Below are positions 20,583 through 62,440 of a stretch of DNA of 64,000 nucleotides, piece by piece. Where the stretch lies: contig OY730476.1 in assembly GCA_963422735.1 (NCBI GenBank), positions 4,832,001 to 4,896,000 of the forward strand, given 5' to 3'. Position 1 is the stretch's first letter. Every line of letters starts with the position of its first letter. Made by a program: the position numbers and the translations under genes. This stretch comes from Candidatus Latescibacterota bacterium (GTDB lineage Bacteria; Latescibacterota; UBA2968; UBA8231). The notes under the pieces are model-generated. The model worked only from the letters and a program-made list of their open reading frames with translations, ran no database searches and was not told the DNA's origin.

Positions 20583-20585
20583 CGC

Positions 20586-24592: not shown

Positions 24593-24635
24593 GATTTATG
24601 TGATTTGCACCCCACCGCGTGGGGATTAAAAAGAA

Positions 24636-26666: not shown

Positions 26667-26673
26667 GCGAGCA

Positions 26674-43686: not shown

Positions 43687-44418
43687 TTACGCTTCTTGGA
43701 CCCGCTCGATGTTCTCGCTCACGATCCTGCCGTCAAACAGGTGAATGATCCGGTGTGCAAAGTCGGCGTAGGCCGGCGAGTGCGTCACCATCACCACCGT
43801 CGTGCCGTTGCGGTTCATCTCGGTGAGCATCTCCATGACCTCGTCGCCGTGACGCGAGTCGAGGTTGCCGGTCGGCTCATCCGCCAGCACCAGCTTCGGC
43901 TCCGAGACCAAGGCCCGCGCCACGGCCACGCGCTGCTGCTGGCCGCCGGAAAGCTGGAGCGGGAAGTGCTTCTCGCGGTGGGTGATCTGCATGTGGTCGA
44001 GGATCGACCGCACCCGCTGCTTGCGCTCCTTGACCGGAATGCCCATGTAGAGCAGGGGTAGCTCGACGTTCTCGTGGACCGTCAATTCGTTGATCAAGTT
44101 GAACGACTGGAAGACAAAGCCAATCGTCCCCTTGCGCAGGTTCGCCCGCAGGCGCTCCGAGTAGGTGGCCACCTCCTCATCGAGCAGGTAGTATGCCCCC
44201 TCGGTCGGGTTGTCGAGCAGGCCGAGCAGATTGAGCAGCGTTGACTTGCCGCAGCCCGACGGCCCCATAATGGCGGCAAATTCGCCTTCGGCGATTTCTA
44301 GGTTGACGTTGTCCAAGGCGGTCGTCTCCACCGCCTCGGTCGTGTACAGCTTGCACAGTCCGACGGTGCGGATCAGGGGTGCCCGGCCGTTTTCAGCGTT
44401 CGATGGGTGCTCAGTCAT
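43687..44418 (-). CDS. MacB/LolD-type ABC transporter ATP-binding protein
   Basis: [36 protein letters not shown]. Confidence 0.93.
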
Positions 44419-44431
44419 GATTTTCGCTCCT

Positions 44432-44505
44432 TAGTTAGTAGTGGTTAGTGGCCCGGTTCTGATCACTGATCACTGGCCACTGGCCACTGGCCACTGGCCA
44501 CTGAT
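44432..44505. repeat. Heptamer arrays in inverted arrangement (GTGGTTA... / CTGATCA, CTGGCCA)
   Basis: gtggttagtggccc...ctgatca ctgatca ctggcca ctggcca ctggcca ctggcca ctgatc. Confidence 0.8.
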
Positions 44506-44510
44506 CCTTG

Positions 44511-45847
44511 CTAGCGCAACACCAACACGTCCATGTTTTCGCCAAAGGTCTCGTAACTCGAAGTAATTACCTGCTCCCCCGGCTCAAGCCCCTCCAGCAC
44601 CTCGTACACGCGGGGATTCTGGCGTCCCAGTGCGATAGAGCGCCGCGTGGCCCGCTCGCCAGCAGCGTCGAGCACATAGGCCCAGTGGCCCCCGGTCGCC
44701 TGATAGAACCCGCCCCGCGTCACTTGCACTGCTTCATCCAGATCGCCCAACTCCAAGCGGACATGCAGGGTTTGACCGCGCCGGATGCCCTCGGGTGATT
44801 CTCCCTCAAACACCAGGTCAACCTCAAAACGGCCCTCCTTTACCTCTGGATAGACCTTGCGGATTACCACGCTGTAGGGCTCGTCGCCGCTCTGGCCGCG
44901 CTGCCCCCGGCCCACGCGGTCAATGTAGTGCTCGTCGATGGCGGCGCGCACCTTGAAGCCGTCGATCCTGTCGATCTGGCCGAGGCGCCCGCCCCTTTGC
45001 TCTCGCCGACTTCCGCTTCTAGCATGGTTAGCTGCCCGGACACCGGGGCCTGCACCGTTAGGTTGTCGAGCCGGCCGCGGACGATTTTTAGATTGCGCTC
45101 CATGCGCTCGACCGCCGAGATGAGCTGCACCACCTTGCTCGCCGCCAGTAGCGAGTCTTGGGTCTGGGTTTCCTCGGTCAGGGCCATGCGGCGGACGCTG
45201 TACTGGTACTCGTCGCGCAGCCGCTCATATTCTTGGCGCGACAGAATGGCTGTCAAATCTTCCGCCGACAGGCTCTCGTAGCGCTCGAAGTTGCGCTTGT
45301 TGATGGCTAGCTGGTACTCGATTTCCATCAGTGCCTTCCGCGAGCGCAGCAGTTCCTGCTCCATGGTCAACCGACCATTGCGCAACGCCTCTCGGCTGCG
45401 CTCGAGTTCGGCTTCCTGTTGCAGGACGGTCAGCTCCAAATCGGGATTGGCCAGGCGCAGCAGCGGATCGCCCTCGGCCACGGCGGCCCCCTCTTCGGCG
45501 AACACCTGCTCTACTTGGCCACTCTCGAGGGCGTCGAGGTACACGGTGTGCAGCGGCAGCACGGTGCCGCGCACCGAGATGTACTCCTGAAACGGGCCGA
45601 ACTCGACCGTCGAGATCGCCAACCGGTCGCGCTCCACATTCAGCTTGCGCACCCCGAAATCCGCCAGCAGGGCGTATCCGCACAGCCCGCCCAACAGCAA
45701 AGCAGCCGCTCCTAGGGCGATGCGCTTGGGCGTGAATCGCGGCTTTTTGATTTTGCGGTCCATGCCAACTCCGCCGCCGGGACGGGTGCCATCGGGGCTG
45801 GGTTCGGGGGGGTGCTCTTTGGAGAGAACTTGGATGTTTGCGGGCAT
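44511..45847 (-). pseudogene. HlyD/MacA-type periplasmic adaptor (efflux RND MFP), frameshifted near 44990
   Basis: ORFs 44864..45847 and 44511..44951 join as EVGESK..G|RLGQID...FKVRAAIDEHYI...KVYPEV; likely start MDRKIKK at 45763. Confidence 0.85.
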
Positions 45848-45890
45848 GATTACTTATGGCCTTGTCTTGTTATGGCCTTATCTCCGAAAT

Positions 45891-46010
45891 AGCAAGAGAT
45901 ATGCCACATTTTATAGGCTATTGAAAAACAATAAGATGAGTTAAATCAGCCTCTTGGCCGACCCAAGATAGTTGTCCGCTGGTGATACAGGGGTGTCCGC
46001 TGGCGATACA
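45891..46010 (-). promoter_or_regulatory. Sigma-54 promoter, IHF-like tract and tandem enhancer (UAS) pair; cassette 1
   Basis: TGGCAT-N5-TTGCT (rc of 45891-45906); TGTCCGCTGGTGATACA at 45973 and TGTCCGCTGGCGATACA at 45994 (21-bp spacing). Confidence 0.85.
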
Positions 46011-46368
46011 CTTAGGGAGCGGCTTTCTTTTGATGGGTCGGGTCTTCAAATACGCGCTTGCCGGCATAATAACGGCTCGCGGGGCCGATATGGACGGGAC
46101 ACCAATAGCCGTGCCGGATATGTGCCCGCGTGGATCGGCCCAACCAAAATCCGCTAGGGTGCATCTACTTTCTTTAATCTTATGATCTGATGTTACGCAT
46201 TGTCCGGCCAGCGAGCTAGGCACTGGCCGCTATAGAGATGCTAGCGTTGTCCTTGCCTGTAGCAGAAGCGGAGTCGAAGCATCTTATACCTAGGTGCCCG
46301 TGCGTAACGTCAGTTGTGATTCATAGCGACCAATCTGGCAAACTGCGGCACCACTCGTCTAGCCCGCA

Positions 46369-47670
46369 CTATACTGGCAGGACCTCGTTCCTTGGCATCC
46401 TCGTCCATTCTTCGCCCTGTAACTCCATAGCGTGCTCCATGCCTTGGATTATATTGTCCTCAATAGAGCAATACGTCCAAGCGCCATAGCGGCCGATGCT
46501 GCTGACGCCGAAGTGCCCCAACTCGCTCCTCTGCCTAGCGGATTCTCGTTGCGCCAAAGGGGTTATATGGACGTACGCCGGTGCCATGACCACCGAATGC
46601 CAATCTACTAATTGGTGCCCTCTGATTATACCGCACCCCTCCAATTCGCTTAGTACCCGGTCTAGCGTCCTCTTCACTACCGGCTCGTCAACGCGGGCCG
46701 CCATAGGCAATCCTATCTCCACATAGAGGCTCATCTTGTCGGAGGCGAAAAGATTGTCGTAGAAACCAACCCGATAAAAGGAAAGATCGACTTGCGGGAA
46801 ATACACCCAATGAATGCCCTCCCGGCCCTTGCAGTCGAAGCCCAAGTTAAAAACCAGTACCTTGCCGCAGGTATAAGCCTCCGGGTCGTAGTCCCGACCG
46901 CAGACATCGAGGAACCGGGGTAGCGGGATTGTGTTGACCAACCTGCCGTAGGACAACCTTCTTTTGTTGGTCACTATGGTTTTCTTGGGGATATCGACTT
47001 CTAAAACCTGTTCGTTGACACAGATATTCCCGGCGGGAATCTCCCATGCCAAGGCTTTCACGTACTCAAGGGCCCCGCCCGCCGGGTAGGTGAATTCAGC
47101 ATTGTAACTGGTGTCCTTGCCATGGCTGCGAAAATTCTGGACGATTTCTTCTATACTGACATGGGGAAAGAATCTTCCCATCGCCTCGGGGTCCAAACGG
47201 TCTAGATCCACCGAATAGACCTTTTCATTGTAGGGGATCAGGAATTTTTCCGCGATCGAGTGCCCGTAATGGGCGATGAGCATGTCCTTGAAGGTGTGTA
47301 CAGCGCGATTCTCGCGGAAAAACAGGTCGTACAGACACGCTAGGCAATCTGCCTTTTTGAGCTGATGTATATTCTTTTAGAACGGATAATCCACCAATTG
47401 GTATATATAGCACCGCTTGGACCCTCTGTAGATGCGCTGCGGCTCCATGCGCGAGAAGAGGTATTGCTCGATTTCCTTCCTTTGGAAATGAAAAAAATGG
47501 CCGGAGTAGTCCCAAGTATAGCCATTGCGCCGAATCGTTTTGCAGTATCCCCCTATTTCCGGCTCCCTCTCGATGATTACGTACGAATCATCGGGGAGCC
47601 AATTCGCCAGTGCCAGTCCAGTAATGCCTCCGCCGATTATCACATAGTCTCTATGCTCTGTATCGCGCAT
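46369..47670 (-). pseudogene. FAD-dependent oxidoreductase (protoporphyrinogen oxidase/UDP-galactopyranose mutase-like) with in-frame TAA at 47377
   Basis: IIGGGITGL, DYSGHFFH, YPF*KNIHQL reads in frame into PYNEK...GRYGAWTY. Confidence 0.8.
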
Positions 47671-47686
47671 AACAGTATCTCTCTTA

Positions 47687-48520
47687 TTAAAAGAATGTGG
47701 ACCTGACCCCCGAAGCGATCCGACGAATGGCGGCGTTTTGATGGGGATCGGTCCTTGCTACTGGGCGGTTCCAGTACGGCGGACAGGAAACGCTCCACTG
47801 ATCGCCATTGCGTCCCTGTCGCTAGCGGCCTTTATTGCGCCTAGTATCGACGTAAACTACTGCGGCATGAACCTCGTCTGTGTTATCGGCAAGCCTACCG
47901 TGCTTTTCCAGATCTTGGAGCAACTGGGATTTCACTCTGTGCCCCAACATATCTACTTCGGGTTCTGTCTCTATCTCTTTGACTAGATCCGCAGTCTTTT
48001 GCCATGCTCGTCCTTGGCGGATCATCCCGACTATCTTGCGTTTGCGGTTCAAGGTCTTGAGATACTTGCCTATGGAATCGACCGGGTCTATCATCCAGAC
48101 CGTCTTGACGAGCGGGCTTTCCTCGGCGAGCCAGATCGCCATATTCGCCCCTAGTCTGCAACCGACTATGGTCAAGCGTGAGGTATCGGTATGGCCGCAT
48201 TCCCGCAGCAGGTAATTGAGGCCAACCTGATAATCCCGGCGCAGTTCATCGAGATTTGCAGACGCTATTTCGCCGCCTGTATTCCCGTGTCCCTGCGGTT
48301 CTACCCGGACAACGGACATCCCCAACTGCGCCATGGCCCGGCACAAATCAACCGACCATGTGTAGCTGGCATAGAATTCGGTTAGCAAGGGATGCAGGTA
48401 GAGTACCGGCCGGCTCTGGACGCAGGGGTCGCTTTTGGACTGGTAGTGCGCGTAGTACAACCGACCATCGAGTACGCCCTGCATCTCTGGGCATTTTTCG
48501 CCCAATTCAACCCTCTGCAT
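47687..48520 (-). pseudogene. Alpha/beta hydrolase, exosortase-A-associated hydrolase-2-like (no nucleophile: GCRLG); TAG at 47822 probably premature
   Basis: PLLTE, GHGNTGG, GCRLGAN; the frame continues past the TAG to PPYW and stops at 47687, just before the next RBS. Confidence 0.6.
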
Positions 48521-49643
48521 CGCAAACCTCCCAGTACACTTCCTTGTATCTGTCACACATTGCGTTGAAGTTCCAACGGGCGACCCCTTTGCGCGCTCGC
48601 TCTCCCATCTGTTCGAGTCGTCCGCGGTCGGCAAGTAGGCGAACGACTGCCGCCGTTCCTCCTTCTATATCGCCCCGCTCGATCAGAATACCAGCCCTTG
48701 TCTCTTCAATGATTTCAATACACCCATTGACGCGGGTGGACACTACGGGGACGCCCGCAGCCATAGCTTCCAAGACTACAAGGGGAAATCCCTCGTGTGC
48801 CGACATCAGCACAAACGCGTCCATCGCCGCCATGATAGCGGGCACATCGCGCCGCCAACCCAACAGGCGGATGCTCTCTTCCAAGCCCCCGCGGTCTATT
48901 TGGCGTTGAATTTCCTGCCGCAACTCCCCGTCGCCGACCACTATTGCCCTTATACCGGGGATCACGCTCCGGATCCGCTTACACACTTCCACAAAATCCC
49001 CGACCCGTTTGCCGGATTTCATACAACTCACAGTACCGATCACGACACCCTCGACTGGCAGGCCAAGCGCGGCTCTGGCTTGCCTACGAGTCGGCAGCTT
49101 GGCGAACCGACGAGCGTCGAATCCCCCGGAAATCACCCTCACTTTCCCATCCGGCGCGAGACCGTGCTCTATGCAGGTCTTTCTCAACCCTTCCGAAACC
49201 ATGACTTGGGCCACCGACCGCTTTGCGGCCAACCGCTCGCAGACCAGATAGACCTTTTCGACCAGACTCATCGCCGCAACGTCGCAACCTATACCGTGGA
49301 CCGTATGGATGCACGGAATGCGAAGCAACCGCGCAGCTGCTCTGCCGATCAACCCGGCCTTCGGCGTATGGGTATGGACGATGTCCGGTTTGAAACTATT
49401 GAGTAGGTTCATTATCCGTACCAACGCCAAGAGATCTTTGAGAGGCGTTATTTTTCTCCGCAGCGCCGCTACCGTGATTACTTCCACCCCCCGTATTCCT
49501 TGGAGATCTTGCAGCAGCAGTCCGCGCTCGTTGGTTATGACGCAGACTTCCCAATTGGACTGCGCCAACCGGCCGGCCAACTCAATGACTATGCGCTGCG
49601 CCCCGCCAAGCTGTAGTTCGGTTATCATCAAAGCTATTTTCAC
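48507..49643 (-). CDS. Glycosyltransferase family 4 (GT-B)
   Basis: LGGAQ, HTHTPKAG, HTVHG, VGDGELR, EGFPLVVLEAMAAGVPVV. Confidence 0.92.
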   Translation of the reverse strand: MKIALMITELQLGGAQRIVIELAGRLAQSNWEVCVITNERGLLLQDLQGIRGVEVITVAALRRKITPLKDLLALVRIMNLLNSFKPDIVHTHTPKAGLIGRAAARLLRIPCIHTVHGIGCDVAAMSLVEKVYLVCERLAAKRSVAQVMVSEGLRKTCIEHGLAPDGKVRVISGGFDARRFAKLPTRRQARAALGLPVEGVVIGTVSCMKSGKRVGDFVEVCKRIRSVIPGIRAIVVGDGELRQEIQRQIDRGGLEESIRLLGWRRDVPAIMAAMDAFVLMSAHEGFPLVVLEAMAAGVPVVSTRVNGCIEIIEETRAGILIERGDIEGGTAAVVRLLADRGRLEQMGERARKGVARWNFNAMCDRYKEVYWEVCDAEG

Positions 49644-49664
49644 GATTTCTCTCCTGTCATCGGC

Positions 49665-50225
49665 CTAACTATGATGACAGGGCAACCTAGAGAGCCGGTC
49701 GCCTAGGAAAAGCATCAACCCAACCAAGATGCCAGCGCATATCCACGTGTAGCTTTGGGCTTGTCCGAAGACGAGCACGGCCAAGATGCCCAGCAAACCT
49801 GTACCGGCGACGGCGACTAACACCAGTTGGACGCAGGTAAGGCCGACGGCCCTCAACCGATGCGCCAGATGGTCGCGACTCCCCTGCATGATCGGTATTC
49901 CGCGACGCCACCTGCACAGCGAAACTAGCAGCACATCTAGCATGGGCACGGCCAAGACGAGACCGGCTGCAGCCCAGTCTTCTATACGGTTAGTCCCCAC
50001 GCCCAACTTGATGCACAGTACGCCCAGCATGAAACCGAGGAAAAGGCTCCCGCCATCCCCCAAGAACATCCGAGCCCGAGGAAAGTTGAAAAGCAGAAAC
50101 GCAAATGCGGCACCAACAAGCGCGGTGCCAGCCAGCGCAACGGCTACGTTGCCCGCATAAAACCCGAGCAAAGCGATAAACGCGGCGGCAGTGGAGGCAA
50201 CCGAGGCGGCTAGACCATTGGCTAC
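49665..50225 (-). pseudogene. MraY/WecA-family polyprenyl-phosphate sugar-1-phosphate transferase, C-terminal half only
   Basis: NGLAA...FNFPRARMFLGDGGS...DHLAHRL; the N-terminal half and start codon are absent. Confidence 0.8.
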
Positions 50226-50226
50226 A

Positions 50227-50772
50227 TCAGATTAGGGCTGCGGTTTCATACGCGAGTTGCCAAGCCAATTTGAACGGATTCTCTGCAGATTTGCCAAAAC
50301 CAAGCTCTGGGGCCAATCGCCACGATGCCTGTTGCACTGCAATTCCTTTCGACGAAAAAGTTGCCGCCGTGCGCAACAGATGCAGTGGGTACGTGACGAC
50401 GATCGCTTCTTTCCAGTCCTGGTTGCGGAAAACTCGTTCTAGGGTTCTAGCCTCGCCGTACGTCCCGCCCGGATGTGAGGCTAGAACCGAAACCGTACTG
50501 CCTCGGGGTATGCCAGCGGCCTCTGATTCCCGCAGAGAGGCGAATGCCACTACTTTAGGGGCCATCCCCTGCTCGAAGAGTTCGGCGGCGCAAGCCAACG
50601 CACGGGCGGTCTCTACGCTCGGTCCTCTCGGTACAACTATAGCGTCGGCTCGACCTCCGATGTGCGGTACGTAAAAGGCGCACTGCACGATCCAAGCGGC
50701 GAGTGCCATCAGAATGCCCAAGCTGACAGCCAATAAGCCTATAGCTGCTTTTGTATAATAATTGTATCCCAT
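50227..50772 (-). CDS. YdcF/DUF218 (SanA/ElyC-like) protein
   Basis: N-terminal TM, ADAIVV, TYGEA, IVVTYPLHLLR, YE; AAGGAG RBS. Confidence 0.7.
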   Translation of the reverse strand: MGYNYYTKAAIGLLAVSLGILMALAAWIVQCAFYVPHIGGRADAIVVPRGPSVETARALACAAELFEQGMAPKVVAFASLRESEAAGIPRGSTVSVLASHPGGTYGEARTLERVFRNQDWKEAIVVTYPLHLLRTAATFSSKGIAVQQASWRLAPELGFGKSAENPFKLAWQLAYETAALI

Positions 50773-50816
50773 CGCGTATCTCCTTCTCGGTTTAGTTTCC
50801 GACTCTACCCATGCTC

Positions 50817-51623
50817 TTACTTCAACTTCCTGATTGCCCGTACTAACTGCGGGCAACTCCCTTCCAGTTTTTCGGACAACTGGATATGGCGCACCCAAGC
50901 CGACGACACCCAATTGTGCAGCCGGTCCCCTTTTCCCCTCAACTTCGCTGTTGCGCCTTGAAAATCGTCGTGGTCGTACAACTCCCGCCGCTTGAGGAAA
51001 TACGGATCCGACCGATTCGTGTTGGTCCCCGCGACCGTGCCGCACGCCCCGGCATAACCGCACTCGACCACTACGCGCCGTACACGTGCCGTCGCTAGCC
51101 CTCGCGGGTACGCGAAATACCGCACCGCTTTGCCGAGGTGATCCTCAATCCTGCGCTTTGAATCGCCTACTTCGCGGTAAATCCCGGCGAGACCGAGTTG
51201 GGTGAGCATGGCGTGGGTTGCGGTGTGCGAACCAATTTCGACTCCCGCTTCGGACAGGGCCGCAATGTCCCTCCATCCCAGCAACTTCCTTCCTTCCAGC
51301 CGGCACCCGACGAGATCGCTGATGACGAAGACGGTCGCTTTGAATCCGAAACGCTCCAACAGTGGCATGACCTCGGTCAACACGCTCGCATAGCCGTCGT
51401 CGAAAGTGATGGCGATTTCCCGATCAACCGAGTGGTTCCCCCATCTGTAAAGCCTATTCACCGACCTATCGAGTGAAGTGGGGGCATAGCCCAAGCTGCT
51501 AATGGCCTCGAGATGCTCTGCGAACCTCTTCGGTGGCACGCTCAACGGACCGTCTCCGTCCTCTATCGCGTGATAGGTCAGGATAGGGAGGGTTCTGCGT
51601 CTTTGCGTTTTTTCTTTAGGCAT
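50817..51623 (-). CDS. Polysaccharide deacetylase (CE4)
   Basis: PILTYH, ITFDDGY, EIGSHTATH, FAYPRG. Confidence 0.92.
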   Translation of the reverse strand: MPKEKTQRRRTLPILTYHAIEDGDGPLSVPPKRFAEHLEAISSLGYAPTSLDRSVNRLYRWGNHSVDREIAITFDDGYASVLTEVMPLLERFGFKATVFVISDLVGCRLEGRKLLGWRDIAALSEAGVEIGSHTATHAMLTQLGLAGIYREVGDSKRRIEDHLGKAVRYFAYPRGLATARVRRVVVECGYAGACGTVAGTNTNRSDPYFLKRRELYDHDDFQGATAKLRGKGDRLHNWVSSAWVRHIQLSEKLEGSCPQLVRAIRKLK

Positions 51624-52485
51624 AGCAGTGATCTGGTTGTGTTGCACTTCGGGTTTTTGTACCGCTTGCTCGTCTGACCGCCGGGCTGGACGCGGAAAGC
51701 CAATCCACCGTCATCTGCACGACCTCCTGTACTTTATCATGCGAACGGTAGGAGTGATCGGTGTCTTCGACTATTCTCGTCTCGTACGATATGCCGCCGA
51801 TAAAGCGGCACAGAGCCTCATAGTCGCGGGCGCACCCGCGGCTGGATGGGTCGCCAGAGGGGTAGATGCCGAGCGCGTGGACGGTTGCGCCGAAGCGATC
51901 TTTGGTCAAGAGGTTTTCGATGGGTATGTGACCGAGACTCTTCTCTTCAGGAGCGTCCACATCCCTCGGACTAGTGAATTGGTTCTTGGCCTCGGCGTAC
52001 AAACCCCAAAACTCCACGACAGCGGCTTTCAGGTACTTGGAGGACCGGCGAATGTCCATGGACCGTTTATCGGCCAGTTCGGTGGGACTCCACATCACTA
52101 ATTTTTGCCAGTTCACCGCCGCCGTTGCAGTACAGTACAGCGCCACCCAAGCACCAAAGCATTGGGCCACGCACGAGACTGCATCGATATTCGCTTCGCT
52201 TTCCAAGAAGCGTGCGCTCTCCACGCAATCGCCAACCGGAGTGAATTTGCCGCCGGCTTCGCTGTTGCCCCGTCCCCCGAAATCGAACCGGAGGCAGTGG
52301 AAGCCGGCACGCGCTAGTTGGCGCGCACCGCACGCGTACATACTATGGTCTCCGAACAGATGATCCGGTTCGCCGGGGACGAAGAGTACGCCGTGCCGCA
52401 AGTCGCGCCCGGGACTGGGCCGGTGCCATACGCCGAGGAGTTGGCTGTTTTCTCCTCGATAGACAACTACTTGCTCGTTGGTCAT
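51616..52485 (-). CDS. Alpha/beta hydrolase, exosortase-A-associated hydrolase-1-like (Cys at the nucleophile elbow)
   Basis: LLGVWHRP, LRFDFGGRGNSE, AQCFG, D, DHSY. Confidence 0.7.
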   Translation of the reverse strand: MTNEQVVVYRGENSQLLGVWHRPSPGRDLRHGVLFVPGEPDHLFGDHSMYACGARQLARAGFHCLRFDFGGRGNSEAGGKFTPVGDCVESARFLESEANIDAVSCVAQCFGAWVALYCTATAAVNWQKLVMWSPTELADKRSMDIRRSSKYLKAAVVEFWGLYAEAKNQFTSPRDVDAPEEKSLGHIPIENLLTKDRFGATVHALGIYPSGDPSSRGCARDYEALCRFIGGISYETRIVEDTDHSYRSHDKVQEVVQMTVDWLSASSPAVRRASGTKTRSATQPDHCYA

Positions 52486-52557
52486 GGGTTGCCCCTTTGC
52501 TGAGGTGATTTTTACCGAAAAATTTCCCGTCTTTCTTCGGTCCTCCCCTGGTCTTTC

Positions 52558-55042
52558 CTACTCGCTCTGCAAGTCTTTAGTGAGGGGTTTCCTCATAAGG
52601 GCCACCGTGTGCAACAATACACCCGCACAGGCCGTGGCCGCTGCGGCCAAACTTTCCAATCCTAGGAACACCCACCCATCGTCTATCCGCTGCGAGAAAT
52701 GGTTTAGCCACTCTTCGATGCCCAAGTACGCCAAGGGTCCTATCAGTAGGCACCCAGCCAGCACCAGCCACAGCAACCGCCGCGCCAACAGGCTAGCCAC
52801 ATGCCGACCCTGTGCGCCCAAGGTCCGCATGAAGGCGATATTATGCCGCTGATGGGACACTGTGATCGCCGTCAGGCCATAGGCTCCCAGCGCAGCGATG
52901 AACACGGCCAAGAAGGCTGACCCGCATACGATCTGTAGCCAGATCAGGTCGTCTCGGTAGTACGCGGCCAAGTGGTCTTCGAGCCACGACAGATACAGCA
53001 CATCGTCGGGGGCTATGGCTTGCCACTCGCGCTCAATGTGCTCAAGCACCTCTTTGCCTGCCTTGGGGTCGAGGCGCACAAAGAGCAACTCGTGCTGATT
53101 CATAGAGGAGTCGAGCAAGAGCACACCCGGCTCTTCAGAGTTGCTTTTCAGCGAATAGAAGTAATAGTCGCTCAGTACGCCTACAACGCGGCCTTGTCCA
53201 TTGGGCATCTGACGGGCTAGGCGTTTCTCAAACTGCACGGTTTGGCCGATGGGTTGGTCCCATCCGGCTCGGGCGACAAAGGTCTCATTGACCAGAATGC
53301 CCGCTTGATCCGGCCCCAAATCCACGCCTTGTACGAGTTGGAGGCCGAGCGTCTCGACAAAATGCGGATCCACGCCTAGGCAACGCGCCTCGATGGTGTG
53401 GTCCTCACTGGGCAACATCGTCTTTTTTATCCAAGGTACTCCGCCCAATTCTTTCTCCAAGAAATGATCCTTACTCGTAGCCACCGACTTGATTCCACTA
53501 TGGGCGAGCAGTCGCTCCTTGAGTAGCTGCCGATGTCTGCTATCGATGTACTGCGGCAACTCCCTTATTCTGAGTACCAGCACTTCGGCGGGCACAAAGC
53601 CCAGATCGAATGCCTGCAAGTGGTGCAGTTGACGAACCATCACCAAGCTCGTGCCCGCCAGCCCAGCATAGGCGGCGAACTGCACCACCACTAAGGCACT
53701 GCCTAGCGCCGACCGGCGGCTGAGCAGACTGTCGCCACGCACCGCCTCGCTGGGGTTGGTCCGCGCTAGAATCAAGCCGGGGTACGCAGCGGCCAACAGG
53801 CTGGTGAGCACTAACAGGACCAGCTCGCCAACGATAAAGTGGATTGGTATAGTTGAGACGCGGGTCTTGACCCAGCACCGCGTTGAACGCCGGCAGCAGG
53901 GCTTCGCCGAGGGCCAAGCCTATCACCAGCGATACGCTACACACCACTACCGTTTCCATCCAGAACTGCACCGGCAGTTGCCAGCGCGTGGCACCGAGGG
54001 CGACGCGCACCCCGACTTCTAGTCCACGTGTACTCGCCTGAGCCGTAGCCAGGTTGACGTAATTGACCACGGCTACGGCCAGCAGGAGCAAGGCGATAGC
54101 CAAGACGATATAGGTTTCCAACGGGTCGTGCGGCGGGGCGATACTTTCGTATCCTTTCCACTGCGTCACGTCGGTGTCCGTGCGCAGGGCCGACAGGGGT
54201 TGCAATTCCACCTTAAAATCCACCCCACGGGCTGCCTCGTCGCTGAAATCGGGTGCGTTTTCAAGCACCAACTGCCGCATCAGTTCTTCGGCTTGCTTCA
54301 AATCGCCATCGTTGGCGTCCTCCCGCAACTGGACGAATAGGACACTGTCTCGATCCCAAAAGTCATCAATCCAGCGCCATAGGAACTCCGAGTTGTGAAA
54401 GGGCAACAGTATGTTCAACTGGATCGACGAGTTCGCCGGCGGCGGGGCGACCACTGCTTGGATGGTGTATTCCTTGTGCTCGGATTTGGGCCATGCCACA
54501 TCGATCTGTACTATCCGACCCACCGCTGGCTCGTCGCCGAAGTAGCGGCGGGCGAAATCGCTGCTGACGACGATGCCGTCCTTTACCCCTAGAGCCGTCC
54601 GCGGATTGCCTACTTCAAGGGGGAAGGTGAACACCTTGAAGAAATTCTCGTCAACCAGTAAAAACGGCTCGTCGTTCCACGTATCGCCCGATCGGACGCG
54701 GATCCGCTGACCTTCCAATGACGCGTCGCGACTGGAAACCAACCGGACCGTTTCTTCAACTTGGGGCACGGCGTTCTGGATAGCCTCGGCCATGGCGACC
54801 GGAGTGTGATCCCCCATTTTCCTACTATCATAGCCCGGGGCTTTGGCGTTGAACACCACTCGGTATAGGTGAGCCCCGTTCTCGTGGAAGCTATCGTAGC
54901 TCCACTCGCGCGATACCAGCGCGTAAGTTAGAATGCAGAAGCCAAACGCCAGCGACAGACTGCCCACTTCAATGACGCTCAGCAGCTTGTGCCGTCGCAG
55001 GATGCGCACGGCGATCTGCAAGTAATTACCAATCATTCTCAT
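52558..55042 (-). pseudogene. FtsX/MacB-type ABC permease (~800 aa), frameshifted near 53840
   Basis: IGNYLQIAVRIL, SYDSFH, NYVNLATA...EVGVRVALGA in ORF 53540..55141; continues as LLAAAYP...LVVVQF in ORF 52558..53811. Confidence 0.85.
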
Positions 55043-55188
55043 GGTGCTTGCTCCTGTCGTATATCTACTTTCCTTACTAGCATCGCTGTAATCATACCGA
55101 GGAGACGAAGGGGCTTGGTTGGTTTGAGAGAGCTTAGCCAATACGGCTAGTTAGGTGGACCTATCCTCGGTCCGTTTATGGGACACGG

Positions 55189-55365
55189 CTAGTCGGGATC
55201 GCAGCATTTCCCTGTCGTGTATATGCAGGTGTACGTTCCACTGAACAGCCCTTCCTGTATCCAGCGGCTGGAGTAGTTGGACCGCTGCTCTGGCGTACAC
55301 TCGGCGTGATAACCGAAAACGACCTTCCGGTTGTGCTTCCGGTTTCTCTTCGTCAGCTTTTTCAT
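55189..55365 (-). CDS. 58-aa peptide with basic leader and Cys/Ser/Thr/Tyr-rich C-terminus; candidate precursor peptide
   Basis: AAGGAGGT 5 nt before ATG; own sigma-54 promoter; MKKLTKRNRKHNRKVVFGYHAECTPEQRSNYSSRWIQEGLFSGTYTCIYTTGKCCDPD. Confidence 0.75.
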   Translation of the reverse strand: MKKLTKRNRKHNRKVVFGYHAECTPEQRSNYSSRWIQEGLFSGTYTCIYTTGKCCDPD

Positions 55366-55519
55366 AATGCACCTCCTTCTTCGGAGAAGTAGGCCCCTCG
55401 GTCTCCTCAGCATGATGCCCAACAGTTGGTCTAATTTTTCGCCTCCTTTCCGACAAGTTAGATATCTGAAGCATATCTCTTTCGGCCTTATCTTGTCATG
55501 GCCTTTCATCCAGAAGAAA

Positions 55520-55639
55520 TGCAAGATGTGTGCCATATTACTTAACCTATTGAGAGACAATAAGATGAGTCGAATCGACTTCCTCAATCGTCCCATGATC
55601 ACTGTCCGCTGGTGATACACAGGTGTCCGTTGACGAACA
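55520..55639 (-). promoter_or_regulatory. Sigma-54 promoter, IHF-like tract and tandem enhancer pair; cassette 2
   Basis: TGGCAC-N5-TTGCA (rc of 55520-55535); TGTCCGCTGGTGATACA at 55603 and TGTCCGTTGACGAACA at 55624; geometry matches cassette 1. Confidence 0.88.
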
Positions 55640-55747
55640 CTCGCTATGCTCACTTGACGAAAACCAGCACGCCCCAATACCTCGCTTAGACCTAATACGC
55701 AGACGCCCCCGTGCTCCGAGATGCGTTTCAATCGCGATTTCATGGCA

Positions 55748-56029
55748 CTATACCGAGATGGCCCTCGATACGAATTCTGCTAGGGATCGCAAGCTACTCA
55801 GCACTTCGGGGTTGAGGTCGTCGTCGTCAAACTCAAAGCCGAATCGCTCTTCTATTTCCTGCACATACGTCAGAATTTCAGCCGAATCCATCCCGAGGTT
55901 GCCGTCGAGCAGAGCTTCGTCTAAGTCGATCAAATCCGGATCTATATCCATCTCCGTCACCTCTAAGAGCAGCACCCGTAACTCGTATAGGATGCGTTCC
56001 ATTTGACTCTCTTCGAATTGTATCGCCAT
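55748..56029 (-). CDS. Acyl carrier protein
   Basis: 93 aa, acidic, LGMDS phosphopantetheine site, EIEERFG; AGGAGG RBS. Confidence 0.9.
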   Translation of the reverse strand: MAIQFEESQMERILYELRVLLLEVTEMDIDPDLIDLDEALLDGNLGMDSAEILTYVQEIEERFGFEFDDDDLNPEVLSSLRSLAEFVSRAISV

Positions 56030-56075
56030 TGTCTGTTTCCTCCTACTAGTATGGCCGCGCCTCAGCCTAAATGGC

Positions 56076-57821
56076 TTATCCCGCAGCCGCCGCGAAGTGT
56101 CTGCGACCTTGTATCTCCTCTTTCTCGTTCGGAGCAAAAAACTGCCGAAAGTACTTCCCCTTTCTCTTCATTTCTGACGGAGTACCCTCTTCAACTACCC
56201 TTCCGTTCTCAATGCAGAAAACCCAGTCCATTCTTTCTATGACTTCTGCGTTGTGGCTTACTACTATAGTGAACATGTTTTTTCGGGTTTCCAGCAGTTC
56301 TAAAACCGATTCCTCCATCTGCCCATCTACCATCGAAGTGCCCTCGTCTATGACTAGGATATCGGGGTCAGACATCAGCGCTCTCGCTATGCACACCCTC
56401 TGCCGTTGCCCGCCCGACAACCACGCCCCATTATCACCTATTGTCGCGCCTCTAGCCCTCTCGGTGACGAGTTTGGGTATCCTAAGAGAGCACAGTATTC
56501 TATCTGGACAGGCGACCTCCCCTCGTTTCCCGTAAAACACGTTCTCCAATACGGACCTGTTGAAAAGCAACGTTTCCTGCGGCACCATGCCGATATTTAG
56601 CTCCTTCAACCTCGTACTGTTTTTGCCAACCGCCCCATGGACGGCTATCTCTCCGTCCATGGGATCCAAAAGCCCACACACTATATTGACCAAAGTCGTC
56701 TTTCCGCTCCCGTTCTCGCCCACGAGCGCATAGCGTAGGCCTCGTTCGAGGTCGAGATCAATGTCGTGTAGCACCAACTCTCCGTGATAGCCTGCTGAGA
56801 TTTTCTCATTGTTATCCGCGAGCACTCGGGCCGAATTCGTCTTTCTCCAGCTAGCTCTATAGTGCCTTTTCGATGCAGGTTTTCCAGTTCCTCGATCCGC
56901 TTTAACGAGACGCTGCCCTCTACCAAGGTCGTATATACTTCCCCTAATTTTTTAATAGGTTCCACGAGCCAGTTGATGTACTGGCCAAATGCAACAAGGG
57001 ATCCGATGGTCATCTCCCCGCCTAGCACATCATGGGCACCGACGAGTAGGACCAAGATCGGTCCTAAGCCGAGGAGAAACGAGGAGCAGGAATGTCTGGT
57101 AGAGCTAAAAACCGTGCGCTTTACCTCGAGATCTCCGAGATCACCTACTTCTTTTTTGATACCCTTGCTGGTATTGGCCCCTTGGGCAAAGGCTTGCACT
57201 ACCTTCAAGTTTTGGTAAGTCTCCACGAAACAGGCTGTGAGGCGACTTCTGCGCTCGGTGGCCATTTGGGTGTATTCTAAGAGCTTGGCTTGGGTAAATT
57301 TTGCTATTGCATAAAAAAAAGGGAGTCCAACCACGCAGATAAAGAACAGCTTCAGATTCATCCATCCCAGAATGCCCACAATAATCGCCAATCGCAACCC
57401 ATTTCTTACTACATTTAACAACGTTTGGGTCAGGACCTTCTGAACATTGCCGCAGTCTGTCATCGTCCGGTACGAAAGGTCAGCGGCGTTAAAGTCGCGT
57501 AGATTGAAGTACGGTATCTCTATTTTTTTTTGCGAGTTCGCCGCGCAACTTCAGCATGATGTTTCTGCCAATATGGGCACTCAGCAGGCGAGAGAGTACG
57601 GATAGCACCAACCGCACTACCATCAGACCGAACATGCAGAATACGATCCAGACCAGTAGCTCGCCATTGCGCTCTAGAAGTACCTTGTCAATCAGCGCCT
57701 TGGTTAATAGAGGCGAAACGAGTACCGCTGCTATAGACATGCAACTGAGGGTCAAGGCCAAGAGCTGGAGCTGCCACTCCCAGCCGATGTACTTGAAGTA
57801 CGGGGTTAGCACGCTGAGCAA
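56076..57821 (-). pseudogene. ABC exporter (TMD+NBD, no C39 peptidase domain) split by two homopolymer frameshifts
   Basis: Three consecutive ORFs; removing one A from the run at ~57523-57531 and adding one A at ~56802 restores a single frame; GENGSGKT, LSGGQRQR, IDEGT. Confidence 0.85.
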
Positions 57822-57908
57822 GTTCGCGTTTTTCTTAAACTTTATGGCATAGCCCCGTGTGGTACTTCTTTCACCAATCGCACACTATTATCGTGCGGGT
57901 TGTAGCAG

Positions 57909-58808
57909 TCAGATCCGTTCTGAGGCGGGGCAGGATGAGATACCAGAGAAAGTCTTATACGTAAAAAGCTCAAATAATATCCCACACAGCGCATAATGGT
58001 CCGTTTCTTGGGTGAATTGATCAAACCGCAAAATCTGCTCAACAGGCGCATAGGCAGGACTGAACTTCCCCGTTTTGTACTCTTTCTCCGCTGGGTGGGG
58101 ATCTCCAGCCGTTACCGTCGTCTCGAAATCGACAAGCGTTACCCCTAGCTCGCTCAGACCAACAGAAAACGGATTTCGTGGACACACCATGACATTGCCG
58201 GGGTTAAGATCGAGAAAGACCTTGCCCTTAGCGTGTAACAAGCGGAGAGCCTCCGTCAGCTTGGCCGCTACCCACAACTTCATATCGAGGGTCAGTTCTT
58301 GCGGATACTGGTCTCTGCTAGGTATCAGATAGAACTTATGCAGGGACTTGCCTTCGACGAATTCGTACACGTAATACTGGATCTTGTAGCGAGTAGGGAC
58401 TATGCCTTTGCAATAGTACTTAACCGCCACCCCCTTTTCGACGGGTTTCGCGAAACTTTCGTGTTCCAAGTCTCGGGCGACATTGAACTCATTGTCGCAA
58501 AAGGCCCTGTCGGCCAGCCGAGTCCGCGAACCTACTCTGTCCCCACTTTCTGTCTCTATATCGCCTAGGAGGCCGATATCTTGGCCCGGCAGGACGTATT
58601 TTACGAATACCTGCTTTCCCGTCAGGATATCTCGGGCCGCGAGGATATTAGAACGGCTTGGAGAAGGCCGCTCGGGAGAGAGCCTGTATTTCCCGATCCG
58701 GCGAATTGGACGCCTCCTTGCTGGCACGACTCTCGGCTCGAGGACGCAGATAGGCATGCTGCGGAAAATCCACTTTGCACATTGGCGGATGTACCTGCTG
58801 ATTTCCAT
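57909..58808 (-). CDS. Protein kinase-like (Hanks-type fold), possibly C-terminally truncated
   Basis: VFVK, NE, YEFVEG, FLDLNPGNV, LVDFE, YAPVEQ, TDHYAL; GAGGAGG RBS. Confidence 0.8.
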   Translation of the reverse strand: MEISRYIRQCAKWIFRSMPICVLEPRVVPARRRPIRRIGKYRLSPERPSPSRSNILAARDILTGKQVFVKYVLPGQDIGLLGDIETESGDRVGSRTRLADRAFCDNEFNVARDLEHESFAKPVEKGVAVKYYCKGIVPTRYKIQYYVYEFVEGKSLHKFYLIPSRDQYPQELTLDMKLWVAAKLTEALRLLHAKGKVFLDLNPGNVMVCPRNPFSVGLSELGVTLVDFETTVTAGDPHPAEKEYKTGKFSPAYAPVEQILRFDQFTQETDHYALCGILFELFTYKTFSGISSCPASERI

Positions 58809-58855
58809 GTTAGCCTCCTCTATGGGCAATCGCAGTAAGTTCTTGCGTGCATCCG

Positions 58856-59536
58856 TTAGCGCGACGCATCAGCGACCACTCTTTTCGATGCACAGCCAGC
58901 CAAGAAACGGCGACGGCTCTCCTCTAGATCGTCGGCGTCTTGCTCGACCATCAAATCGCCGATGTACCCCGAACTATCGACGCAGAGCATGACACCATAG
59001 ATTTCCCTCGATCCGAGCAATTGTAGTAACGATTCCGGCACGTGCTTCTTTTCTACCGTGACAGGTTTTCTTTTCGGAGCGTACGAGTTGCTTATTTCGA
59101 GCACCTTGATCAGGCTCTCTTCCCCTTCAAATGCGCCGATGTAGAGTGGCTCGTTCCCAATCCCCATATCGCTTTGCCCCGCGTACCAGTATCCAAACAT
59201 ATCGGCATAACAAGCACTGCATTTCGCCTTGTCGTCGAATAGCATAATTATATCGCCGTCTCGCTGGATAAAATCTCCTAGGCGAACTACCTCTATTCCC
59301 TGTCGAATAGGCAACTCGCCCAAAGCTAGTCCCAGTACCTGCTCGCCCGCGATTGCTAAGGCGACTTCCCTCTTTAACCCCTCAATCTCGTGCCGGCGCT
59401 CGTCCCTACCTTGGTTCTTGCCAACGAAGAAAGACATCCCTATGGCCAAGGTCGCTAGCAGCACAACGGCCAACCGTCTGATATGTCTCATAACTCGCTC
59501 CTTGTTGTTAGAATTAACCATTGTTCGCGATCCCAA
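58856..59536 (-). CDS. Membrane-anchored thioredoxin/redoxin-like protein (CxxC)
   Basis: N-terminal TM; IIMLFDDKAKCSAC; MLCVDSSGYI. Confidence 0.5.
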   Translation of the reverse strand: MGSRTMVNSNNKERVMRHIRRLAVVLLATLAIGMSFFVGKNQGRDERRHEIEGLKREVALAIAGEQVLGLALGELPIRQGIEVVRLGDFIQRDGDIIMLFDDKAKCSACYADMFGYWYAGQSDMGIGNEPLYIGAFEGEESLIKVLEISNSYAPKRKPVTVEKKHVPESLLQLLGSREIYGVMLCVDSSGYIGDLMVEQDADDLEESRRRFLAGCASKRVVADASR

Positions 59537-59545
59537 ATCGCACTG

Positions 59546-59776
59546 TTAGGCATCCGAGACTGCGATTCTGTACACCTTTACGACTGGATCGGCTAGGTTG
59601 CCAGAATCGTCGATGTAGGGCTTTTGCCGCATATAGAGCAGACCTTCGTCAGCAATGCCTACCAACCAGCCATAATCGGGATCAATGCGGCCGATTCGTC
59701 TGAATTGGTCGTCATATACCAGATAATAGCCGAATCCCTCACCTTCCTCCTTCATCTCTTCAGTCTCAGGAGCCAC
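59546..59776 (-). pseudogene. C-terminal fragment of a probable 6-bladed beta-propeller protein
   Basis: YYLVYDDQFRRIGRI...GLLY...DPVVKVYRI resembles the last blade of such proteins; abuts enhancer cassette 3 with no RBS. Confidence 0.45.
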
Positions 59777-59777
59777 G

Positions 59778-59890
59778 ACGAGTACGAATTACCTTCCCGA
59801 CAGGCCCGTCGCTACTGTCCGCTGATGATACAGAGGTGTCCGCTGGCGTACACCGGAGAGCGGCTTCTGCGTCTGCTGAGGCTGTCCGCC
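59778..59890. promoter_or_regulatory. Enhancer cassette 3 (promoter part deleted)
   Basis: TGTCCGCTGATGATACA at 59816 and TGTCCGCTGGCGTACA at 59837, followed by CCGGAGAGCGGCTTC..GTCTGCTGAGGC. Confidence 0.75.
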
Positions 59891-60027
59891 ATTATCGGTC
59901 GCGTACGCCCACAGCCGCGCGCCCTAGGCTCTATGGGATGTGTACGCCAACACTCTGAACAGGAGACAACACCCTGCTAGATTTATTGACTTTAGGGTAC
60001 GGACTGGTTATCAGTCTATCAGACAGA

Positions 60028-60096
60028 ATGAGTCGAATTGCCATCCTCGCCGGCCCAGTGCTACTATCCGCTGGTGATACCCTACCGTCCGCTGGC
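60028..60096. promoter_or_regulatory. Degenerate enhancer cassette 4
   Basis: ATGAGTCGAAT...CTACTATCCGCTGGTGATACCCTACCGTCCGCTGGC. Confidence 0.6.
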
Positions 60097-60181
60097 TTTG
60101 GAGGATGGTTAGCGAGAGCTAATGCCCGGATATGATGTTGCTAATGAACCGGAACTACTATATCGTATCAGGATATCGCGG

Positions 60182-60346
60182 GTGAGGCATCCAAAGAAGG
60201 AAATTGAGGAGGTGCTAGTAAGCGCAGAATCGGTAGGATGGACGGTCACGACTACAAAATCTGGTCATCGGTGGGGTGTGATGCGATGTGCGGAATCCAG
60301 TCGTCCAGGATGTCAGTACTCTATCTGGTCCACACTTGGTGCGTAA
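60182..60346 (+). pseudogene. Truncated HicA-like toxin
   Basis: HPKKEIEEVL..AESVGW...GHRWG...C...C.YSIWST, then an early stop. Confidence 0.5.
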
Positions 60347-60383
60347 ATGCCCGCACAGGAGTAAGCCGTAAGGAGAACGCGAG

Positions 60384-60728: not shown

Positions 60729-60851
60729 GCCGAGTTCAAGCCTTCGACCGGGCCGATCTATTGTACAAATCTGTCAATCGCAGCGAACGAATCAACTCCT
60801 TAGCCGGCCCAGCACTACGGCCTGTCGGCGATATACCGGAGAGCAGCTCCC

Positions 60852-62227
60852 ATGTCTGCTGAGGCCGCCCGCATCCTCGTCGTGGACGACGACCAAGACA
60901 TCCTCGTCGCCGTACGCTTGCTCCTCAAGCAGCAGGGCTACCAAGTCCGCACCGAGACCGATCCCCAGGCCATTCCGAGTGCCCTCAAGCAGGAGTCGCC
61001 GGCAGTCGTCCTCCTCGACATGAACTTCACTCAAGAGGCAACCAGCGGCCGGGAGGGCTTCTACTGGCTCCAGCAAGTTCGCGAGCTGGACCCGACCGCC
61101 GTCGTCTTGCTGATCACCGCATACGGCGATGTCGAGATGGCCGTGCGCGCCATCAAGGAGGGGGCCGTCGATTTTGTGCTCAAACCCTGGCAAAACGAGA
61201 AGCTGCTGGCCACGCTGTCCGCGGCCATGGAATTGCACCGCTCGCGCCGGGAAGCCCACCGCCTGCGCTCCCGCCAGCAGCGGCTGTCCGCGGACCTCGA
61301 CCAGCCCTTTGGCGACCTCATCGGCGAGGCCCCAGTCCTACAGGAGGTTTTCCAGGCGACGGTCAAGGTGGCCGCCACCGACGCCAGCGTCCTCATCCTC
61401 GGCGAGAACGGCACGGGCAAAGAGCTGGTGGCGCGCGAGATACACCGCCGCTCGGCGCGCACCGGCGAAGTCTTCATCGCCGTCGATATGGGATCCCTGA
61501 GCGAGACCCTGTTTGAGAGCGAACTCTTCGGCCACGTCAAAGGGGCCTTCACCGACGCCCGCAGCGACCGCGCTGGCCGCTTTGAAATTGCCTCCGGGGG
61601 CACCCTGTTCCTCGACGAGATTGGCAACCTGCCCCTAGCCTTGCAAGTCAAGCTGCTCGCGGCCCTGCAAAACCAGCAGGTCGTCCGCGTCGGTGCCAAC
61701 CAACCCGTGCCCGTGGATGTGCGCCTTATATGCGCCACCAACCAACCCATCCACGAAATGGCCACAGCCGGCACCTTCCGCCAAGACCTCCTCTACCGCA
61801 TCAACACCGTGGAAATCCACCTGCCCCCCTGCGCGAGCGCCCCGAGGATATCGCGCTGTTGGCGCGTCACTTCCTCGACTTATACCGGACCAAGTACCGC
61901 AAGGCCCTGACCGGCCTGGCCGCCGAGACCCTCGCCCACTTGCGCGCATACGCTTGGCCGGGCAATGTGCGAGAATTGCAGCACGCAGTGGAGCGCGCCG
62001 TCATCATGAGCGAAGGGAACCGACTGACTGCCGACGATTTTCCCCTGACCGCGGCCCCAGCGTCTGGAGAAGCTATCGGCTTTGACAGCTATAACCTCGA
62101 AGACGTTGAGCGCGAGGTCATCGCTCGGGTGCTGCACAAGCGGCAAGGCAACGTCAGCCAAACCGCACGGGAACTCGGACTGACTCGCACGGCCCCCTAC
62201 CGCCGCATGGAGAAATATGGACTGTGA
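60852..62227 (+). CDS. Sigma-54-dependent NtrC/Fis-family response regulator; 1-nt frameshift in the C-run at ~61824-61829
   Basis: REC domain (VVDDD, LLDMN, KPW), GENGTGKE, ESELFGHVKGAFTDA, LFLDEIG, FRQDLLYR, then WPGNVRELQH and a Fis HTH in the next frame. Confidence 0.92.
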
Positions 62228-62440
62228 GAAGCCTTCCCGGTGGGAAGCAACAGCCCTTGGAGGTAGAAATCGCACGTCCGAACTTTTTAGCGGAACTCGC
62301 CCTCTTTCTATTCGGCAGATCGGGGCATTGAGAGTACATTTGGGCATTCCAGCGGATTTACTGCTGGGCCTTTCAGCGTAATCAACGGCTGCAACTCGAA
62401 AATCCCGCACAGTCCTCTACCGCCGCATGGAGAAATATGG
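62197..62440 (+). repeat. 24-bp direct repeat (3' end of the regulator gene) flanking ~196 bp
   Basis: CTACCGCCGCATGGAGAAATATGG at 62197 and 62417. Confidence 0.9.

Follow-up and report, generated by a model that had tools for sequence, protein, structure and literature searches.

A decayed gene cluster for a cysteine-rich peptide, probably of the CLI_3235 type, in a sigma-54 regulon of a Latescibacterota genus

The precursor gene and the block around it

The stretch analysed here, called the window throughout, comprises 64,000 nucleotides of contig OY730476.1 (assembly GCA_963422735.1) from a Candidatus Latescibacterota bacterium, and it contains a block of co-oriented genes around a gene for a small Cys-rich peptide. 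This precursor gene (55189..55365; (-) strand, like all features below unless marked (+)) is intact and lies in frame within a 184-amino-acid (aa) open reading frame (ORF) at 55743..55189. Its 58-aa product consists of the leader MKKLTKRNRKHNRKVVFGY, which is basic, 19 aa long and ends in GY, and a 39-aa core of the form H-A-E-C...C...CC with four Cys and nine Ser/Thr; Thr accounts for 17.5% of the core residues. Upstream lie the ribosome-binding site (RBS) AAGGAGG (55372..55378), a sigma-54 -24/-12 site TGGCAC-N5-TTGCA (55520..55535) and the element CCAGCGGACA (55603..55632), a putative activator-binding site that is repeated before the HlyD gene at 46005-45973. The strict sigma-54 pattern occurs 13 times on the two strands of the 4.95 Mb genome, and homologous sites stand before the precursor genes of two relatives, G046 and G007. 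A preliminary description of this DNA, made from the letters alone, had picked out the hidden ORF, its strong RBS, its basic N-terminus and its four-Cys C-terminal region, all of which agree with the translation, the nesting in the longer frame and the 23 homologues described below. It had also given the peptide a sigma-54 promoter of its own; the consensus site stands, but by its sequence the promoter is a duplicate of that of the neighbouring HlyD/MacB operon.

All 23 candidates proved to be homologues of the precursor in a profile search, giving a family of 24 with the window's peptide. For 22 of the 24, mean identity over 231 pairs was 86% in the leader vs 37% in the core, and the Cys frame C-x(14-30)-C-x(3-10)-CC was kept in every one (22/22). 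Glu stands three residues after the leader's final Tyr (Y+3) in 24/24 precursors, including short variants that miss two residues there. The conserved leader and variable core that had been expected of a RiPP-like peptide (RiPP, a peptide made by the ribosome and modified after translation) are thus a property of the family. Between the window and G046, the core codons show 2 synonymous and 11 non-synonymous differences, numbers too small to establish diversifying selection. A six-frame search located the peptide in 4 of 31 genomes of the genus and in 4 of 168 genomes of the phylum; one further match, in G006 (E 0.005, two stops), was discarded as chance. The clusters of G003, G046 and G007 hold four (three distinct), two (identical) and two precursor genes, respectively, so comparable small ORFs, whose absence from syntenic clusters had been named as the test of the peptide, occur in all three related clusters. 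Wherever upstream DNA was looked at, the relatives' precursors are preceded by a copy of the promoter. By these marks the 58-aa ORF is a genuine RiPP-type precursor, predicted to yield a small exported Cys-rich peptide, and the 24 precursors with their one fixed G-Y-x-x-E junction form a natural library.

Gene identities in the block were assigned by hidden Markov model (HMM) scans with Pfam and NCBIfam. Upstream of the precursor lies an intact acyl carrier protein (ACP) gene with a DSA motif (55748..56029; PF00550 E 5e-8, above the cut-off; TIGR04069 weak, E 0.02 and 15 bits vs a cut-off of 70). It is followed by an ABC exporter without a peptidase domain, broken into three pieces (56076..57821) by frameshifts near 57524 and 56801 and 590 aa long in G003 and G046, and by a stand-alone Hanks-type kinase (57909..58808), whose C-terminus is gone via a 158-bp deletion at 57952 (intact form 374 aa). 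Next comes an intact membrane-anchored CxxC redoxin (58856..59491), which had no HMM match and nonetheless has a thioredoxin fold with CSAC. A 3' remnant of a six-bladed beta-propeller lipoprotein gene (59546..59787; 349 aa in G007) ends at a deletion junction with an orphaned upstream element (59787..59848). About 2.9 kb are gone there, comprising a -24/-12 site, a fusion of a subtilase (S8) with a TIGR04066/DUF1611 domain and most of the propeller gene; the loss of the fusion and its promoter was placed at the 59787/59806 junction.

Downstream of the precursor lies an FtsX/MacB-type (ADOP-like) permease (52558..55042; frameshift at 53850, intact form 828 aa), followed by a hydrolase-1-like alpha/beta-hydrolase with Cys at its nucleophile elbow (AQCFG; 51616..52485) and a CE4 polysaccharide deacetylase (50817..51647), both intact. 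A 532-bp deletion at 50229 has clipped the C-terminus of a DUF218 protein (50227..50772), and the N-terminal half of a WecA/MraY-like transferase (49665..50229; intact form 334-348 aa) is deleted. The module continues with an intact GT4 glycosyltransferase (48507..49643), a hydrolase-2-like alpha/beta-hydrolase with a GCRLG elbow (47822..48634; premature TAG at 47824-47822) and an oxidoreductase dependent on flavin adenine dinucleotide (FAD) (46369..47670; nonsense TAA at 47379-47377, intact form 436 aa), whose HMM support is weak in the window copy and clear in an intact orthologue. On the exosortase-associated models the hydrolases stay far below the cut-offs (hydrolase-1 on TIGR03100, 68-73 bits vs 168; hydrolase-2 on TIGR03101, 44-55 bits vs 203), and no exosortase gene was seen in the cluster loci; the pair does not qualify as exosortase A/PEP-CTERM hydrolases 1 and 2. 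The list of co-oriented neighbours in the preliminary description was confirmed by the scans and, for the redoxin, by fold and CSAC. Its impression of a less GC-rich block also held, with 54.6% in the block against 59.3% in the left flank, 61.2% in the right flank and 59.5% in the genome.

Intact relatives, insertion site and decay

In three genomes of the same genus (G003, G007 and G046), nearly or fully intact clusters with two to four precursor genes each were found. There, the S8-TIGR04066/DUF1611 fusion (646-649 aa) lies upstream of the propeller lipoprotein, redoxin, kinase, ABC and ACP genes; the ABC gene of G007 is itself split. Both PF07755 (DUF1611) and PF00082 (subtilase) score above their cut-offs in the intact relatives. 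Among the aligned fusion members, the catalytic triad D26/H60/S204 and the P-loop G-T-x4-Q-G-K-x-T are each present in 41/41. In the structural model (predicted local distance difference test score 86), the N-domain matches subtilisins, and the C-domain matches DUF1611 structures (Z 30.4 and 29.8) and the N-acetyltransferase DgcN (7xrj; Z 25.8, root-mean-square deviation 3.7, 307 residues aligned). The whole two-domain fold is shared with 7xrj, 2g0t and 2obn (Z 25.8-30.4, 307-317 residues aligned), as is the P-loop G-K-x-T. The fusion differs from DgcN in its sequence (~20% identity), in being joined to a protease and in a substrate that is presumably a peptide. DgcN uses acetyl-CoA on D-Glu. 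The accessible text of PMC10845958 names the DgcN-DgcA pathway and no more. Related records are labelled as Latescibacterota or Gemmatimonadetes metagenome-assembled genomes; among runs that cover a small part of the stretch, some bear the label sponge metagenome, which by itself does not settle the habitat. A contig scan with a single protein query gave just 2 close loci.

The block sits between the parts of a host regulon. On one side are the ancestral upstream element and sigma-54 site of the HlyD operon (45891..46005) and the HlyD adaptor and MacB-type ATPase (43687..45847; 4-bp deletion in HlyD at 44996); on the other are a sigma-54 response regulator and sensor kinase divergent from the cluster (60852..63801, (+); 1-bp deletion in the regulator at 61826). 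Of 10 relatives examined, 8 have the HlyD/MacB/FtsX operon, with a single promoter of this type, immediately next to the sigma-54 regulator; of the remaining two, one has a lone cluster-type FtsX at the site and one has no regulator nearby. The CCAGCGGACA-type element precedes HlyD in 10/10. A deep contig from sample X6 skips 45822-59802. The undivided regulator-HlyD arrangement in the relatives and this skip indicate that the cluster is an insertion that duplicated the host promoter. The same four of the 31 genus genomes hold orthologues of the peptide, kinase and GT4; these four carriers are kin, and their co-occurrence therefore counts as one acquisition event. G006 retains a cluster remnant without the peptide, and the regulon site also takes other cargo, namely a GT2/GT-transglutaminase/TPR set in G006 and a lone FtsX in G018. 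By its sequence relationships, the 3' module looks like a set of surface-polysaccharide genes recruited from elsewhere, which may not act on the peptide.

Some further observations concern this site. The G006 cargo (L125:6441-11252) comprises genes for a TPR protein, for an 824-aa protein that contains a transglutaminase domain and for a GT2, and paralogues of the set lie in the window's genome (G000) near C1:351-413 kb and 1.93 Mb. In relatives (L128-L136), four or more FtsX/MacB permeases can stand in a row downstream of HlyD in the host regulon, an array of which the window keeps a fragment at 43240-43656.

Comparison with the intact relatives showed that, besides the deleted fusion, nine further genes in or beside the window's block are broken. 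Deletions have removed ~2.9 kb with the promoter, the fusion and the larger part of the propeller gene, 158 bp from the kinase and 532 bp spanning DUF218/WecA; frameshifts affect ABC (two), FtsX, HlyD and the regulator, and premature stops hydrolase-2 and the FAD enzyme. Redoxin, ACP, precursor, hydrolase-1, CE4 and GT4 are still intact. The haplotype recurs in short-read contigs: one contig of X2, a possible source sample, spans 44474-62500 with 2 differing letters and 0 gaps, and contigs of X6 and X10, which stem from other studies, run through five lesions without change (53850, 57952, 47822, 44996 and the 59787 junction, the last by an X10 contig); assembly error as the source of the broken genes was thereby ruled out. 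For the lesions at 50229 and 57524, no 31-letter bridge was found among the contig pieces listed (1109 more lie outside them). The decay suspected earlier is therefore real and more extensive, since the fusion and its promoter are lost besides the broken genes. As its sequence predicts, the window's copy is decayed and dead, unable in cis to cut, acylate, phosphorylate and export or oxidise the peptide (steps 2-5 below), and it matters chiefly as a pointer to intact clusters. Two other fusions of the genome (C1:1218190 and C1:2846615), 35-37% identical to the lost one, may conceivably rescue it in trans; an Ala/Gly-rich precursor of its own accompanies the second.

Kinship with known peptide systems and spread of the core

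The accessible text of two papers (PMC10731318, PMC4573289) describes the CLI_3235-type system as a TIGR04065 precursor with TIGR04066, a TIGR04069 ACP, the radical SAM protein CcpM (TIGR04068), a subtilase and an ABC exporter. As far as these descriptions go, our clusters share the basic M-[KR]-K-L-x-K-R leader with an aromatic end, the Cys-rich core, the subtilase, a TIGR04066-like domain, an ACP and the ABC exporter. They differ in that there is no radical SAM gene, the subtilase and TIGR04066 are fused, control is by sigma-54, and a kinase, redoxin, propeller lipoprotein, FtsX and glycan module are added. The available part of PMC10731318 also presents the SacP23 cluster of Paenibacillus polymyxa (precursor, ABC, TIGR04066, ACP and subtilase), whose precursor has a similar leader and whose product resists Edman sequencing and has a blocked N-terminus. 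Subtilase and ABC exporter are both found in intact relatives, and in the window they are deleted or frameshifted. The kinship with CLI_3235-type peptides noted in the preliminary description is supported by S8, TIGR04066/DUF1611, ACP and ABC in intact copies, and its idea of a free-standing new pathway falls, as those copies hold a CLI_3235-type core. The CLI_3235 model it proposed, TIGR04065, matched 0/23 family peptides at E<=5, and six-frame searches with it were above the cut-off in 0/5 genomes; the model appears narrow, since 0/11 candidate precursors of other fusion loci match it either. The reported lack of radical SAM genes held: no ORF with CxxxCxxC was present in 8/8 loci of related clusters, and CcpM was above the cut-off in 0/5 genomes (one distant partial match each, elsewhere in the genome). 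The protease missing from the window is S8, not C39. Because the precursor and radical SAM tests failed, we set the clusters apart from strict CLI_3235-type membership, although the core would work alike.

Other comparisons were less close. The best NCBIfam match of the S8 domain was QhpE (NF049966; 94 bits, below the 165-bit cut-off). According to the accessible text of PMC7876137, QhpE is cytoplasmic and takes the N-terminal leader off a Cys-rich peptide before ABC export, its substrate differing in being a subunit of an enzyme, which a radical SAM enzyme cross-links. For lanthipeptides of class III/IV, LanL and LanKC matched only the kinase stretch (50 and 37 bits vs 650 and 575), the cluster loci showed neither a lyase nor a LanC gene, and the 374-aa protein is a single kinase domain. 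Glycocins such as sublancin are small disulfide-bonded exported peptides with a thiol-disulfide oxidoreductase and a glycosyltransferase nearby. Here, by contrast, the leader ends in GY and not in a double glycine, the 590-aa ABC has no C39 peptidase domain and there is no GT2; the sugar enzymes, unlike those of glycocins, are of the lipid-carrier type, with only GT4 and WecA. A literature search, in which few subscription papers were covered, returned no description of this gene combination and none assigning chemistry to TIGR04066 or its ACP.

The fusion has 293 homologous proteins and is present in 85 of 168 phylum genomes, with two more copies in the window's genome. We surveyed the best 80 of 236 metagenome loci, only 44 of them at least 9 kb long. 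Among the 80, an ABC exporter was found in 47, a radical SAM-like gene in 33, BtrH-like genes in ~20 and an ACP in at least 18 (tblastn with the window's ACP); small basic-leader ORFs occur in many. The kinase was found in none and the hydrolase pair in one, L085. Other S8-DUF1611 and ACP clusters thus share the fusion, ACP, ABC and leader type, and differ in carrying radical SAM, BtrH-like or DUF692 genes. Six Bacillus plasmids were matched; on one, B. mycoides plasmid NZ_CP035996 (L140:4861-10662), lie an ABC, an ACP, two 44-aa precursors, the fusion and a DUF692 gene. Since the ACP accompanies the fusion in many loci without glycan genes and in B. mycoides, it appears to belong to the peptide core. 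As far as gene content tells, the S8/TIGR04066/ACP/ABC core is widespread, and the kinase and hydrolase/glycan accessories are not.

The accessories have few relatives. Of 338 kinase matches, 2 reach 1e-30, both 88% identical clade members. The kinase fold is a single plain Hanks domain (PknB Z 23.9); a sequence search of the PDB gave 0 matches, and no lanthipeptide kinase was among the 50 fold matches listed, although kinship is still possible. Close hydrolase-1 orthologues occur only in the four peptide genomes and one remnant (5/168), with two further weak matches near 31%; a word search gave 11 proteins, all at least 81% identical, and no match was found in plasmids. From the sequences compared, what seems new here is the lack of a radical SAM, in whose place stand an orphan Hanks kinase, a CxxC redoxin and a hydrolase-1/2 glycan module, together with the location of the insert, a sigma-54 HlyD/MacB regulon whose promoters have been duplicated, and the Y-x-x-E junction.

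Several of these loci deserve a note of their own. The B. mycoides cluster is culturable and joins the core to DUF692, a multinuclear iron enzyme family. The two other G000 fusions (C1:1218190-1220073 and C1:2846615-2848498; L033, L034) are intact and accompanied by ACP, ABC and BtrH-like genes; near the second, at C1:2851.5-2851.9 kb, lies a long Ala/Gly-rich precursor with a similar leader, and a short fusion remnant is at C1:2478281-2478478. At the unrelated locus L085:8510-16674, the fusion lies with an ACP, two radical SAM genes, hydrolase-2 and hydrolase-1 and a gene resembling asparagine synthetase; no precursor was found nearby.

Proposed working of an intact cluster and rival readings

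We favour, as the probable reading, a decayed CLI_3235-type (S8/TIGR04066/ACP/ABC) RiPP cluster without a radical SAM gene, inserted in the sigma-54 HlyD/MacB/FtsX regulon of one genus. The precursor family, the gene content of intact copies, the insertion site and the decay are read from sequence; we infer all of the chemical steps. In step 1, the two-component system would switch on several duplicated sigma-54 promoters. In step 2, which we hold with good confidence, the cytoplasmic subtilisin domain would cut off the basic leader at or near G-Y|x-x-E. In step 3, the fused DUF1611 domain and the ACP may acylate the freed N-terminus, with the invariant Glu as recognition or acceptor residue, and in step 4 the kinase may phosphorylate core Thr/Ser; both steps are tentative. 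In step 5, the ABC exporter would likely secrete the peptide and the redoxin set two disulfides, in place of the thioethers of radical SAM members. In step 6, for which the chances are about even, the propeller lipoprotein and FtsX permeases would serve immunity or sensing, and the hydrolase/glycan module would make an accessory acylated surface glycan. The likely product is a leader-cleaved, probably N-acylated, disulfide-bonded exported peptide; its phosphorylation and any link to the glycan genes we infer only.

The Y-x-x-E motif recurs in 2/2 precursors of the B. mycoides plasmid cluster (T-L-Y|M-G-E), an out-of-sample match. Several findings weigh against this reading, in which every modification of the peptide is a prediction. 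The SacP23 precursor has no Glu at Y+3, and only 8 of 20 regex candidates from other loci have it (12 of 20 at +1 to +4), counts that come without a shuffled control. The oxyanion-hole Asn, present in 39 of 41 family members, is replaced by Asp in 5/5 members of the window's clade, so that protease activity is possibly weak or altered. The likeness to DUF1611 is one of fold at that low identity, and the fusion scores 62 bits (E 3e-17) on TIGR04066 vs a cut-off of 200. The Thr richness of the core is also compatible with a beta-hairpin. The absence of kinase homologues from the other fusion loci (0/80) and the general Hanks fold, of no peptide-specific class, suggest that the kinase is possibly regulatory. 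Finally, the best plasmid relatives of the FAD enzyme (50%) lie in ordinary capsule or exopolysaccharide (EPS) loci.

This last finding is what would be expected if two unrelated modules shared one promoter system, an alternative that we regard as unlikely, yet one to be taken seriously. The peptide would then be only cleaved, oxidised and exported, and would act as a bacteriocin or signal with disulfides and no further modification; the ACP, hydrolase-1/2, deacetylase, WecA, GT4 and FAD enzyme would make a chemically unlinked acylated surface glycan, and the kinase would be regulatory. Hydrolase-1/2 and GT4 score best on exosortase/PEP-CTERM models, no oligosaccharyltransferase was seen in the cluster, and the G006 set and the lone FtsX of G018 show that the site accepts other cargo. 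However, the ACP accompanies the fusion in loci without glycan genes (18/80 by tblastn) and in B. mycoides, the unrelated L085 unites ACP, fusion and both hydrolases, and close hydrolase-1 orthologues are confined to the four peptide genomes and the remnant.

BtrH is an acyltransferase that uses an ACP as donor and an amino sugar as acceptor. A quite improbable alternative builds on this activity and lets the ACP join both modules: DUF1611 would load the ACP, and the hydrolase pair, replacing BtrH-like acyltransferases, would hand the cargo, which might be the peptide, to the amine that de-N-acetylation exposes on an undecaprenyl-linked sugar, and a surface-anchored peptide-glycolipid would result. 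BtrH-like genes accompany the fusion in ~20 of 80 loci and are absent here, where, as in L085, the hydrolase pair is present; CE4 would provide the free amino sugar and WecA/GT4 the lipid-linked acceptor, and in G046 a precursor gene with its promoter lies directly before hydrolase-1. Yet no precedent was found, the cluster has no acyl-activating enzyme, among DUF1611 proteins the single characterised one bears the title of N-acetyltransferase, not ligase, and the glycan module is known from one clade only. The boldest reading, equally a long shot, makes the product itself a hybrid of a new kind: the peptide would be hypervariable, phosphorylated and stapled by disulfides, and a single protease-acyltransferase fusion would both cut its leader and acylate the Y-x-x-E junction. 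The ACP and hydrolase pair would attach it to an amino sugar on a lipid carrier, and a bacterium living with marine invertebrates would display it on its surface. It is hardly credible that the small ORF stands there by accident, in an ordinary locus for polysaccharide or transport: the peptide had no Pfam or NCBIfam match in the HMM scans and its exact 58-aa sequence no entry in the protein collection searched, but the 24-member family, conserved leader, fixed Cys frame, RBS, promoter and two to four copies per cluster refute it.

If the favoured reading of a CLI_3235-type cluster is right, the cut-and-acylate enzyme would open a new way to acylated RiPPs, and it would be uncommon for a stand-alone Hanks kinase to act on the precursor. 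With 85/168 phylum genomes, the TIGR04066/ACP/S8 peptide system is widely distributed, and it is chemically uncharacterised, and a variant without a radical SAM isolates what the shared core does. The DgcN fold offers a structural lead, and the B. mycoides plasmid cluster, whose precursors share the motif, a culturable test system.

Elsewhere in the window, a small gene pair at 60122-60728, between the cluster and the regulator, looks by eye like a HicA/HicB-type toxin-antitoxin without HMM support, and a low-GC pair at 5937-7588 looks by eye like a DNA methyltransferase and a restriction endonuclease. At 29421-31366, two near-identical tandem 297-aa secreted proteins with a WGRIK-type C-terminal motif follow a series of large secreted proteins (14838-29286).

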